DNA of 64,000 nt from Octopus vulgaris (taxonomy: Eukaryota): NCBI GenBank assembly GCA_951406725.2, contig OX597833.1:66402001-66466000 (forward strand). The letters are read 5' to 3'. The notes under the pieces are model-generated. The model was given only the letters and a program-made list of their open reading frames with translations. It did no database searches and was not told the origin of the DNA. Within the stretch, counting starts at the first letter, position 1. Each line of letters starts with the position of its first letter. Below are positions 173 to 62,565 of the stretch, one piece after another. The position numbers and the translations under genes were made by a program.

Positions 173-1252
173 TTATTGCTTATTTAGCTTGGGTTCGAAT
201 TTATCAATAAAATTCTTTTCTTTGATTTTCCTCTCGATTTCACTTGGGCTGTGTAATTTGTAGAATGGAAATATTATATATATTTTCCGACCACATGTTG
301 CTAGGTGGTTACTCAAAGGTATCTGACGGACCTCTGGGTCTCTAATCTGTTGCCGGTGTACACGTGAGCGTTCTAATAGTGCGTTTCCCGTCTGACCTAC
401 ATATATTTCTTCACAATTTGGGCATTTGATGCAGTAAATTAAATTTCTGCTTTTGCAGTTCATATTCGCGTTTGTGAATATTTTCCCGGTTTTTGTGTTT
501 ATATATTGACCGGTATGTATGAATTGGCATGTGCCACATCGGCTATCATTGCATTTAGATACCGTGAATGTTTGGTCTTTGTTGCTGAGGTCAAATTTTG
601 CCTTTGTTAGTAATGTTTTCAAGTTTTTAGGCTGTCTTTTACTAAGCACCATAGCTCGATCCTTGATTATGTCTTTTAATTCATTACTTTGGGCAATGAT
701 TGGTAGGTTTGCTTTGGCAATGTTGAAGATATTCTGGTGACATGGGTTGTGTGTCACTATGAATGGTATGACTTGTTCTTGTTTTCCTCTTCCTTGGGTT
801 GTCCTAAGTTGTTGTATAGGTATTTTTATAGCCCGCTGTATGCCATTTTCTATAAGTAGAGATGGGTATTTTTGTTTGAGCAAAAATTCTCTTAGTTCTA
901 TTAGGCGTTTGTTCCTGATATTTGCATCTTCTACAATAGTACAAATTCTTCTGGCTAGGCAGTATGGGATGTTACGTTTTGTATGTGGTGGATGGCACGA
1001 CTTAAAATTTAGGTATTGATGTGTGTCTGTGTGTTTATAGTATATATCTGTGGTGATGGTGGTGTCTTTTTTAATTACCATTATATCCAGGAATGGTAAT
1101 TTGGTACTACTCATCTCCTTTGTAAATTTGAGAGATGGGTGTAGGTTGTTCAGGAGGATATTGAACTCTTCCAGAGTATTTAGAGATTCTGTCCAGATTA
1201 TGAAACAGTCGTCTAGGTATCTCTTCCATGCCTTTTCAATATACTTTCTAAA
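173..1252 (-). mobile_element. Penelope-like element ORF fragment: RT C-terminal part (YLDD, thumb) plus GIY-YIG endonuclease, 5'-truncated
   Basis: Translation shows WKRYLDDCFIIW, KLPFLDIMV, TDIYYKHTDTHQYLNFKSCHP, NIPYCLARRICTIV, Cys motif CNDSRCGTC, then NLIYCIKCPNCEEIYVGQTG...ERSRVH (GIY-YIG). It is open for about 360 codons to the stop at 173. The first ~38 aa of the supplied ORF derive from the adjacent TA tract and Helitron. Confidence 0.93.
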
Positions 1253-10142: not shown

Positions 10143-10779
10143 AAATATATACATACATATATTTATGTTCAGAAAAGCGTCTCATATACATATATATATT
10201 CATATATGTATTTATGTATAAATGTATATATTTATGTATGCGTATGAGATGCTTTTCTGAACTTTTCATTAATATTTATAAGAGATAACGTTTTGTTGCT
10301 GCTAAAATAACATTTGAAATTGAAATGATTAAGTGAACTTGCTAAATTTTTCCAGCAGGAGTAGTTTACCTTTGTCAGGTTTCGGTTAAAAATTTTATGA
10401 TATCTGCGATTCACAAGAAAACGAAAATAAATTAAATACAGGAAATATTTAGCAGTATTTGATCGTAAGTTCGTGCAGAAAACTGAATTATGCCACTAAA
10501 CAATGCTTTATAGAATAGATAAAATGCACAACCAGAACTTACGCAGACGGTAAGTTTAGATCTGGAAGAAGGAAAAGTTCGCGAAATCAGACGAAGTCAG
10601 ATAAAAGCCTGAAATCTTTCTTTATCGAATCTTTTCATTTTAGTTAAAAGGATTAAATTCAGGAACATTCACAGCAACTTTCAAAGTCGTTTTAACAAGT
10701 GTTTAACATCATTATGATATTTCAAGAAAATTCATGTACCATCGAACAAGAGAAAAAATGTTTTAGCAGAGAGAAAAGC

Positions 10780-39395: not shown

Positions 39396-39441
39396 TCTCT
39401 GATGAAGGGATGTATAAAATATCCCAGAAACAGCTGTAAGA
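39396..39441 (+). ncRNA. Minimal type I hammerhead ribozyme, GUA cleavage site after 39438
   Basis: Stem I TCT/AGA, core CTGATGA at 39399-39405, stem II GGGATGT/ATATCCC, GAAA at 39427-39430, palindromic stem III CAGCTG. Confidence 0.8.
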
Positions 39442-39518
39442 ACTTCTCTTTATAAATGTTCTGAAAACTATTCAAAGCTTTGGATTTTTTTATTTCATTC
39501 TGTTAATATATACATATA

Positions 39519-50698: not shown

Positions 50699-51364
50699 AT
50701 ATGATAAAGCACCGAACTGGCAGAGTCACTAGAATGGCGTTCGCTATTTGTTCGTGTCTTCCGGAGAGTTTTTCATTAATTTGAAGTCGATTTCTGACTC
50801 TTCACGTTTCGAGTTCAAATCGCACCAAGGTCAACTTTGCCTTTCATTCTTTCAGCGATCTAAAATTAACATATAATAAGGGTATCAGTGATGTGCCGAA
50901 GTCCATGGGATCTGCCCCTCAAAATTTTTGTCATTTCACCTAAATCAGAAATTATTTTGGGGTTGATGAAAGGAAGTGGCGTGGCAGAATCGCTGGAGCA
51001 AGATGTATTGCAGACATCAAACCCTATACGTGGCTAGACATCAAACCCTATACGTAAAGCAACTGAGTTCAGTTGCTTTACGTTTGTACCTCTGCCGGAA
51101 GGAAGATATGTGGTTAGCATAGGGACAAAAAAAAAAAAAAGCCGTTCAAATGGTTAGTCACTTATGGGATTTGAAGTCTAACGCAACACCACATATACTC
51201 AAGTGAAAAATAGTTGAAAAATACAAGACAAATGTTAATGTATTCAAACAAAAAAGAATGCAAGCTATGCGTTGCTGAAAGATTGTAGATGCTTTTCAGA
51301 TCATATAACTTCACCTCACATTTGAATTCCAGATCTGAAATTTCCAGAGGATGTAAATATATGG

Positions 51365-59227: not shown

Positions 59228-59929
59228 AATGTGCCTTTGTGACATTAACATTAACCATTTTACATGTGTTCTACATTCCTGCCCCACAGCTACACATACA
59301 TGCACACACACGGACACACACACGTGGGCGTACATACCTCCCTACACACATGCGCCGGCGCACACCATATATGTACATAATTGTACAATTGTATATGCAT
59401 ATACATATACATATATATCTATAGGTATATAGAAGAACATATATTTGTTTTATTTGCTTTAGCCAGAAGTTGTGACCATGCTGGAGCAATAGCATTTGTG
59501 TGATTACTGGTTTATATTAGATCATTTCCCCGTCCCTTTCTCCATGTATATATAGTACTGGTGAATTAGAGATCTTACCAATACCGCCCTTCTTTGCCGT
59601 GACCTGGGTTCATACTATATCGTGGGTACAAAATTGGTCACTATGTGTCTATTTTTACGACATCTGGATGTCGTCGATATGTGAGGATTTCAGGGAAGGT
59701 TAGCGAAACCTTGAACAGTAGGTCCTTGAACAGTAGGCTGTTAAAGCGTTGCGTCTTTACTGCGGAAGGAGATAAAAAGGATTTTTGGTACTGTGCAATG
59801 GTGTCCATTACATGGGTTTGTATAGTTTTCAAACCGAAAAATAGCGGCTAGTCTCTTCAGGGTCTTAGACACAGACAGACAGACAGACACACAAGTACGC
59901 GTGCGCACCCACCGATGCACACACATATA

Positions 59930-60462
59930 TATAGGCAATATTAAAAACAAGGATTACTACCTTAATTTTTACTCATACACACACATACACACACATATAT
60001 AGACAATATTTAAAACAAGGATTACTCCCTTACTTTTTACTAATACACAGACACACAACATATATACATATAGACAATTTTAAAAATAAGGAATACTCCC
60101 CTTAATTTTTACTAACACATACATACACACACACGCATATATAGACAATATTAAAAATAAGGATTACTCCCTTAATTTTTACTAACACGCACACATATAT
60201 AAAGACAATATTAAAATAAGGATTACTCCCGTAATTTTTACTAACACGCACACACATATAAAGGCAATATTAAAATAAGGATTACTCCCTTAATTTTTAC
60301 TAACACATACACACGCACACACATATAAAGACAATATTAAAAATAAGGAATACTCCCTTAATTTTTACTAACACACACATACACACGCACACGCATATAT
60401 AGACAATATTAAAAATAAGGATTACTCCCTTAATTTTTACTAATACACACATACACACACAT
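59930..60462. repeat. ~60-70-bp minisatellite, 8 copies, with a variable (CA)n spacer
   Basis: AGACAATATTAAAAATAAGGATTACTCCCTTAATTTTTACTAACAC repeated. Confidence 0.92.
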
Positions 60463-61176: not shown

Positions 61177-61244
<68 letters not shown>

Positions 61245-61424
61245 TAGTTATCGCCATACTAATATGGCAGTCTATAAATATAAGACTAAAGCTGTCGCTG
61301 ATTAGCCCCAAGAGGCCATCGCCTCTAGCTAGCTATATGACACACGAACCTGCGTCCATTACTATTAATATCTAGTAACGCTGCCGTAATCTCCTTTAGA
61401 GAGACTTAGTAATTTTAATATTTC

Positions 61425-61474
<50 letters not shown>

Positions 61475-61512
61475 TATATATATGCATATATATATGTATC
61501 TTCAAATTTACG

Positions 61513-61555
61513 GTGGCTGACGATAAGCATCACGCTTTGAAACTTTAAGTACCAC
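61513..61555 (+). ncRNA. Minimal type I hammerhead ribozyme, GUA cleavage site after 61551
   Basis: Stem I GTGG/CCAC, core CTGACGA at 61517-61523, stem II AAGC/GCTT, GAAA at 61539-61542, stem III CTT-T-AAG. Confidence 0.8.
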
Positions 61556-62048
61556 GGATTTTGAATCAAACTGTTTTGATCCATAAATGTAACTCCCAAT
61601 AAAAATCTGTTGAGTACCCTTGTTTGTTTGGTCCACTCACTCGTGTATATATCCCAACACTGTCTATTTCAGGAATCCGTAGTCCGATTTGCGCGAAACT
61701 TGTTTTATTCTGTTTGTATTTAAATTTCAGGGGTGCTTACTTTCAGAGTATTTTCGCATTATGTGCCAATTTGGCTGTGTTAAATTACTGACAGACACGC
61801 GTGCAAGCAAGCAATCACAGAGTTAGTGAGGACGGGGTATCTCTCCTTAGGCCTGCTATCAGCGGGTCGGGAGAGGGTAACAAAGGATTCATCCCTTGGG
61901 TTTCTTTTGGATCGTAAGGACTCTTCCGAACCGCAGATAACCCGTCTTCACGAACGCCAGAATATCTATTCGTTGATAACCAGATGACCACCGACCGTAA
62001 CAGATTTCAACCTCACAGAGGTGAAGTGTAAAATTTGTCTTTGGACTA

Positions 62049-62109
62049 GAGTCTGATGAGCCTGTCTGCGAAGCTACAACACTCGTGGATGCGAAACCAC
62101 TGGTCACTC
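62049..62109 (+). ncRNA. Type I hammerhead ribozyme, GUC cleavage site after 62105
   Basis: Stem I GAGT/ACTC, core CTGATGA at 62053-62059, stem II GC/GC extended by GTCTGCGA/TCGTGGAT, GAAA at 62093-62096, stem III CCA-C-TGG. Confidence 0.85.
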
Positions 62110-62199
62110 CTTTACCAAACCTTAACTTTATCACTTTAATATATATATATATATATACATATATTAAAGTAATAATAATATATATATATATATACGGCT

Positions 62200-62565
62200 T
62201 ATAATAGGTAATGGTGTCATTGAGTCGCAAAGGTGTCAGGTAATGCTGAATAAGTGCTTTAGACAGGCCATAGTTAAGTTCCAGGTTCGGTGATTTTGCG
62301 AATAAGGGGTTCAACGTTGGTCATATGTTAGCGTGTGTATATAAGAATTTTTTGCGTAATGAGATAAAAAAAAAACAAGGCTGTGTAGATATTAGAATAT
62401 TTACAGATAGAAGGTCTTGCAGCTGTTTCCAAGATATTTATTAATTATATCCCTTCATCGGAGATGGTGTGAGAGGATGGTTAAGTAATAATTAATTTAG
62501 ATGGGATACAAAATAGAGAGTGAGGTGGAGGAAAGAAAATAGATGTGAGATATGTAGGGATATTT
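62200..62565 (-). mobile_element. PLE-derived element, family H1, with a mutated HHR at 62415-62464
   Basis: Colinear with 38940-39290. The HHR reads CCGATGA...GAAACAGCTGCA, i.e. two core substitutions. Confidence 0.72.

Follow-up and report, generated by a model that had tools for sequence, protein, structure and literature searches.

Two type I hammerhead motifs of unrelated sequence lie on the same strand of the window, the whole 64-kb stretch of DNA analysed here, raising the question whether they delimit an element that releases a discrete RNA or came to lie side by side by accident. A preliminary description had offered both readings, a two-ribozyme non-autonomous element yielding a 554-nt, possibly circular RNA, or two adjacent pLTRs. 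We scanned the window for type I hammerheads and obtained three motifs; 100 block-wise dinucleotide shuffles, serving as the null, averaged 0.09 (91 shuffles with none, nine with one). One of the three is located at 39399; the other two, termed HHR1 and HHR2, are those in question:

61501..61565, plus strand: HHR1, type I hammerhead (scanner and fold)
62040..62119, plus strand: HHR2, type I hammerhead (scanner and fold)

Both cores are real and above chance. The type I core (CUGANGA, GAAA and NUH, closed by helices I and II) is present in HHR1, with CUGACGA at 61517, GAAA at 61539 and GUA ending at 61551, as well as in HHR2, with CUGAUGA at 62053, GAAA at 62093 and GUC ending at 62105. The scanner thereby reproduced the two complete same-strand cores described earlier, with predicted cleavage after 61551 and 62105, and also their spacing, the predicted sites enclosing the 554 nt of 61552–62105. 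Also in line with the earlier description, which had seen no same-strand ORF here, the longest ATG-started frame between the cleavage sites spans 21 codons on the plus and 25 on the minus strand.

HHR1 is formed by a GUGG/CCAC helix I with a distal part at 61501-06/61560-65 and a helix II of 4 bp above a U-U mismatch (10.1/11.1). HHR2 exhibits a GAGU/ACUC helix I with a distal part at 62040-44/62115-19 and a long helix II with G-C at 10.1/11.1. Helix III is a 4-1-4 palindrome in both, consisting of the A15.1-U16.1 pair, 2 bp and a 3-nt loop, and its predicted pair probability of 0.01–0.06 in the two monomers falls short of a stable monomer helix. The hammerhead folds were predicted at −7.9 kcal/mol for HHR1 and −13.2 kcal/mol for HHR2, the respective MFE values being −11.4 and −15.7 kcal/mol. 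The earlier term intact-looking is thus appropriate for the core boxes but not for the mismatched helix II of HHR1 or the weak helices III of both motifs. Rfam returned no match in the window at the gathering score and 15 weak matches around the locus at E≤10, no hammerhead among them. The equilibrium fold of the whole 644 nt of 61497–62140 formed neither hammerhead (pair probabilities ≤0.02), a calculation that ignores co-transcriptional folding and carries little weight.

To what do the two motifs belong? A search of the 2.8-Gb, microsatellite-rich genome with these 644 nt gave at least 59 matches, with 40 of 2,263 candidates scored. The matches outside the window split into four pieces, covering query positions 9–156 (family A), 154–328 (family C) and 326–431 and 439–644 (both family B), and among the matches listed all four pieces occur together solely in the window. 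The stretch is a mosaic, in which the 3′ ends of two different Penelope-like families enclose a fragment of a third repeat:

61425..61496, no strand: (TA)n tract to the left of the mosaic (sequence)
61497..61645, plus strand: family A 3′ end (pLTR remnant), 5′-truncated just upstream of its hammerhead (repeat matches)
61598..61603, plus strand: AATAAA, candidate poly(A) signal, part of the family A 3′ end in 25 of 30 aligned copies
61646..61652, no strand: TATATAT, remnant of the (TA)n target past the family A end (sequence)
61653..61824, plus strand: family C fragment, cut at both ends, without hammerhead (repeat matches)
61822..61931, minus strand: inverted piece of the family B 3′ UTR (orientation in other copies)
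61935..62140, plus strand: family B 3′ end (pLTR remnant; repeat matches)
62138..62195, no strand: (TA)n tract to the right of the mosaic (sequence)

The two hammerheads accordingly belong to the 3′ ends of separate Penelope-like families, which bears out the reading as two adjacent pLTRs, and the AATAAA noticed after the first hammerhead is present. That the two hammerheads are unrelated holds insofar as families A and B differ, but the spacer is itself composite, made up of a third repeat and an inverted B piece. Long TA tracts lie outside the mosaic and none at its inner junctions; the A/C junction holds only 7 nt of TA, and family C and the inverted B piece overlap by 3 nt (GTT). The earlier remark that no microsatellite lies between the sites is therefore correct for long arrays but overlooks the TATATAT remnant. 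Within the right TA tract, 12 nt (62164–62175) are the reverse complement of the usual family B end and may be the tip of an inverted arm, or a chance match.

For family A, a 25-nt motif matched 1,493 times in the genome (control 0), a count that includes both arms of two-armed insertions. Searching with the family A end yielded at least 49 matches (40 of 1,397 candidates scored), and the nearest other copy among the matches listed is 84% identical to that of the window. A TA/TG dinucleotide tract follows 22 of the 24 scored ends, and an inverted arm on the 5′ side is common among the copies. Across the 30 aligned copies, the helix III palindrome is complete in 19 of the 24 that could be scored, with a compensating change in one subfamily, and the full core is kept in nine, the window copy included. 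Longer copies continue into a low-complexity 3′ UTR and, further upstream, an endonuclease remnant. We fetched 20 loci with such a remnant: eight gave RT matches, 10 carried the A end downstream on the same strand, and five (L117, L119, L122, L123 and L130) combined the two, with the RT preceding the A end in the same orientation.

For family B, a 23-nt motif matched 27 times in the genome, and the search with its end gave at least 42 matches (40 of 170 candidates scored), the nearest other copy among those listed being 81% identical to the window copy. As judged by eye, (TA)n is found at 11 of 24 family B ends and 12 more continue into a shared tail. The helix III palindrome is complete in 13 of 17 scorable copies, and the full core is kept in eight of the 30 aligned copies including that of the window, an alignment with one duplicate row (L064 and L077 are one place). 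In all 11 other copies that hold the 61822–61931 piece beside the B end, the piece has the opposite orientation, from which we conclude that an inverted piece of B is joined to the B 3′ end in the window. The two parts share about 21 nt, identical today at 18 of 21 positions. The locus L007 provides an open endonuclease frame with CxxC and CxH motifs directly upstream of the family B UTR, with 6 nt between its stop codon and the piece found inverted in the window. At a second locus, L089, two B ends enclose thumb, linker and endonuclease in a partial tandem, and a piece of the RT core lies in an inverted arm. The partial L007 peptide and two L089 pieces, decayed sequences, had no Pfam match, GIY-YIG included; YIG is visible in L089. 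Related endonucleases are abundant, as all 150 scored out of 16,098 candidates matched.

Family C accounts for most of the 59 whole-query matches. Its 25 loci, at 81–86% identity, contain internal tandem copies, and no hammerhead motif was found in their matched segments. Other C copies show a TA-rich end near the position where the inverted B piece meets C in the window. Family C may resemble non-autonomous Helitron-like elements.

Placing families A and B relied on their coding parts. In both, the hammerhead end is preceded by an RT and, after it, a C-terminal endonuclease; for family B this order is read from L089 and L007, where thumb and endonuclease precede the B end. The Hydra clade, in the account of it in Craig et al. 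(2021, PMC8557442), is defined by a CxCX5C linker, CxxC and CxH motifs, hammerheads and (TA)n targets. CxxC and CxH around a conserved E and N could be read in the translations of both families, with CCHH absent by eye. The CxCX5C linker is complete in one of 20 family B endonuclease loci (L106) and decayed in L089, and its second Cys is missing in all 12 matched loci out of the 20 of family A. The L089 RT piece and Hydra-1_Obim are alike at 68 of 93 positions, compared by eye with the published alignment. In view of the linker result and a by-eye comparison in place of a tree, we call both families Hydra-like; they would represent two such families with contrasting hammerheads, neither of them being Hydra-1_Obim itself. 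An assignment of family B to the Naiads was ruled out, as these are described to have an N-terminal endonuclease and to be without canonical hammerheads (PMC8557442). Decayed Hydra-like fragments of thumb and endonuclease also occur elsewhere in the window, at 10331–10501 (minus) and 51129–51239 (plus; tblastn E ~3e-4 and 8e-4, respectively). Separately, L092 harbours at 101–679 an open 193-codon frame with a Pfam GIY-YIG match (E 5.6e-5) and a CCHH-like pattern, pertaining to another Penelope-type clade.

Does the arrangement move as one unit? We searched the genome once for each of the three internal junctions. The A/C pattern matched a single place, the window itself, as did the C/inverted-B pattern with two mismatches allowed; the inversion junction had 16 candidates, and scoring all of them showed the window alone to span it. 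Sensitivity, gauged by recovery of the pattern halves in control loci, was partial, with 20 of 29 (A) and 12 of 25 (C) for the A/C pattern and 22 of 25 and 18 of 29 for the C/inverted-B pattern, so that one or two old sister copies might escape. Among the 186 non-self loci fetched (623 kb, some overlapping), families A and B meet in two and in none of the others: in L081, B comes first and A about 700 nt later, with the main arm inverted, and in L041 a 42-nt inverted B tip follows A. Within the sensitivity of these searches, the genome thus gave no second place with the order A, C, inverted B and B.

The first reading of the preliminary description, a mobile non-autonomous element with unrelated hammerheads at its two ends, would account for the geometry, namely same-strand cores, the lack of an ORF between them and TA tracts on the outside. 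The pieces nevertheless derive from separate families, no second copy of the arrangement was found, the stretch is not a tandem repeat, and the joint of the putative circle rebuilds no ribozyme. As far as the sequence comparisons go, a mobile two-ribozyme element is not supported, and we regard it as extremely improbable. A second pair of unrelated same-strand hammerheads was encountered in L174 (minus strand, 1519–2546), where a family E hammerhead is followed 451 nt later by an unrelated one; the latter recurs after 534 nt, forming a retrozyme-like tandem.

We consider it very likely that the mosaic has its origin not in one mobile element but in separate old insertions, target-primed and truncated, at one TA-rich site. 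Each end would have been laid down by target-primed reverse transcription that stopped early, the inversion of B with its 21-nt overlap would reflect a second priming event akin to twin priming, and the TA tracts may have drawn repeated insertions. Younger unrelated repeats flank the mosaic (99% and 93% identity to their nearest copies), and since they are younger than A and B, the site took insertions at several times. The stretch is probably unremarkable genomic debris, in which fossils of known element types have piled up. Against neutral debris, both window copies keep the full core, a mildly lucky outcome given the proportions in the aligned copies of either family. A target-site duplication is not readable in the TA tracts, and the 5′ part of family C is missing in the window.

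Alternatively, the 644 nt could have landed at once in one (TA)n tract as a chimeric, non-propagating insertion, in which a Hydra enzyme on B RNA switched template to an RNA holding a C fragment and the A end. The long TA tracts flanking the whole mosaic and not the inner junctions are compatible with such an event, as are the similar divergence of A and B (84% and 81%), the 3-nt C/B overlap, the short TA remnant at A/C and the truncation of C at both ends. Yet B possesses an ordinary inverted 5′ end that meets C directly, near the usual TA-rich end of C, and A retains its usual TA tail. Moreover, the junction pattern search revealed no donor in which A is so joined to C, and the families meet in other orders at other loci. 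We therefore judge a single chimeric insertion unlikely, and separate insertions remain our preferred reading.

The repeats neighbouring the mosaic were inspected as well. Family D occupies 61241–61428 and is young, with nearest copies 99% identical and other loci at L136–L164. In the window, the copy folds back on itself at a short AT palindrome, and as eight other places match the whole 188 nt at 90–96%, the fold-back recurs. Longer family D copies carry a hammerhead with a U3-A8 core variant in 11 of 29 loci, and the window copy is without ribozyme; U3-A8 covariation is known from Schistosoma Cercyon elements (PMC4209133). On the other side, family E lies on the minus strand at 62198–62480, with a hammerhead core at 62461–62418, about 310 nt from HHR2, that reads CCGAUGA in place of CUGAUGA and GCA in place of GUA. 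Across the 29 nearest family E loci, 37 motif matches comprised 25 with CCGAUGA and four with CUGAUGA, and a subfamily with the changed core may have spread. The third scanner motif, at 39399–39450 on the plus strand, is a family E-type hammerhead with the canonical CUGAUGA core and GUA. At L034 (G000:C1 ~27.647-27.649 Mb), D, A and E fall within 1.1 kb in an arrangement unlike that of the window and not its duplicate. This triple meeting seems rarer than copy numbers suggest, perhaps reflecting clustering at TA hot spots. A composite unit of D, E and A, as hinted by L034, was rejected: another family was present at none of 29 D and one of 29 E loci, and D and E of the window resemble copies elsewhere more than those of L034. 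Apart from these, 59925–60460 is a tandem array of about eight units of 57–70 nt with a conserved core and (CA)n-like spacers.

Irrespective of how the pieces were assembled, could the locus act as an accidental cassette, in which a plus-strand transcript is cut twice, releasing a 554-nt RNA whose 5′-OH and cyclic-phosphate ends RtcB could join to give a circle? In its favour, the two complete cores share a strand, the hammerhead folds are within 2.5–3.5 kcal/mol of the local MFE, and RtcB circularises retrozyme monomers in vitro (PMC7229834). The low helix III pairing of the monomers speaks against it, however, and metazoan motifs of this kind are described to act as dimers, a single Penelope-type minimal hammerhead showing no detectable cleavage in vitro in the experiments reported (Cervera and de la Pena, PMC4209133). 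Heterodimers offer no way out, since the two palindromes are not complementary (predicted duplexes of −3.6 for A/A, −8.2 for B/B and −0.6 kcal/mol for A/B). Each ribozyme is thus predicted to cut poorly alone, its helix III being weak and built for the homodimer, and heteropairing impossible. Weak cleavage is conceivable, given that an axolotl hammerhead whose helix III has 2 bp, and which also contains a U-U mismatch, reached 22% cleavage as a monomer (PMC7229834). In addition, the family A AATAAA could end transcripts before HHR2.

Joining the ends of 61552–62105 brings the 5′ part of HHR2 next to the helix I strand of HHR1, leaving two of four helix I pairs with the closing pair broken. Because this joint rebuilds no ribozyme, the circle, unlike a retrozyme, would be unable to process multimers of itself. 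Folded as a circle, the 554 nt do no better than shuffled sequences (z +0.08, 40 shuffles). From the poor cleavage it follows that the 554-nt product is predicted to be rare, and a dead end if made. Among 18 presumed-RNA runs, none was listed as containing the stretch, and we compared eight of them at the level of assembled contigs (X1, X2, X4 and X5 at 85%; X3, X6, X7 and X8 at 95%). These contigs contained none 99% alike, none spanning the stretch and no joint from 62105 to 61552, a blank that is no evidence either way; the contig matches look like other copies of families A and C. Overall, we regard an accidental cassette as very improbable. The same slim chance applies to viewing the locus as a retrozyme at its possible birth, in which two accidental Penelope hammerheads would cut a read-through transcript and RtcB would close the 554-nt circle. 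Separate truncated insertions thus remain the reading that we favour.

The finding in itself is of little consequence, comprising known element types in a one-off juxtaposition. It does advise caution: where a genome has many Penelope elements that target TA repeats, unrelated hammerheads come to lie next to each other on one strand, L174 being a second case, and such pairs need a shared-junction test before they are labelled retrozymes. If the 554-nt circle were true, pairs of different ribozymes could yield circular RNA in an animal genome, and genomes crowded with hammerheads could spawn novel circles without a tandem repeat. A narrow search of the circular-RNA and hammerhead literature did not find the phrase 'two different ribozymes'. 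Families A and B could serve tests of homodimer-dependent cleavage.

Compared with known systems, families A and B resemble the Hydra clade, exemplified by Hydra-1_Obim from Octopus bimaculoides, as portrayed in the relevant part of PMC8557442: common to them are the order RT, thumb, linker and endonuclease, the CxxC and CxH motifs, a hammerhead close to the 3′ end, insertion into (TA)n, truncation at the 5′ side, and copies with inverted arms or in partial tandem. Family B and Hydra-1_Obim also agree in the ACCA-N-TGGT helix III, in addition to the RT similarity given above, whereas helices I and II of the B hammerhead differ. Family A departs from the clade by the lost second Cys of the linker and its long low-complexity 3′ UTR, and the window departs from Hydra elements in that the non-coding ends alone are kept.

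Metazoan non-LTR retrozymes, in the descriptions drawn upon here (Cervera and de la Pena 2020, PMC7229834; Li et al. 2026, 10.64898/2026.07.22.740005), likewise feature type I hammerheads around a non-coding stretch of a few hundred nucleotides with low G+C. In contrast to the window, they repeat a single unit in tandem, each copy with the same ribozyme, which the joint of the circle rebuilds; the window has four unrelated pieces, no repeat unit, no second copy found and no rebuilt ribozyme. Also comparable are the published hammerheads of truncated Penelope-like elements, which are of type I with a short palindromic helix III and mostly occur as single dispersed copies of highly variable sequence. 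The close pairs described there (100–700 bp) are on opposite strands, whereas the two hammerheads of the window pair share a strand and come from different families. Finally, the family B piece resembles the twin-primed, 5′-inverted L1 insertions described in PMC12016303, in which an inverted upstream part and the non-inverted 3′ end share a short overlap. The 21 nt of family B exceed the quartile range of 4–17 bp given there for L1, and twin priming for this Penelope-like family would hold by analogy.
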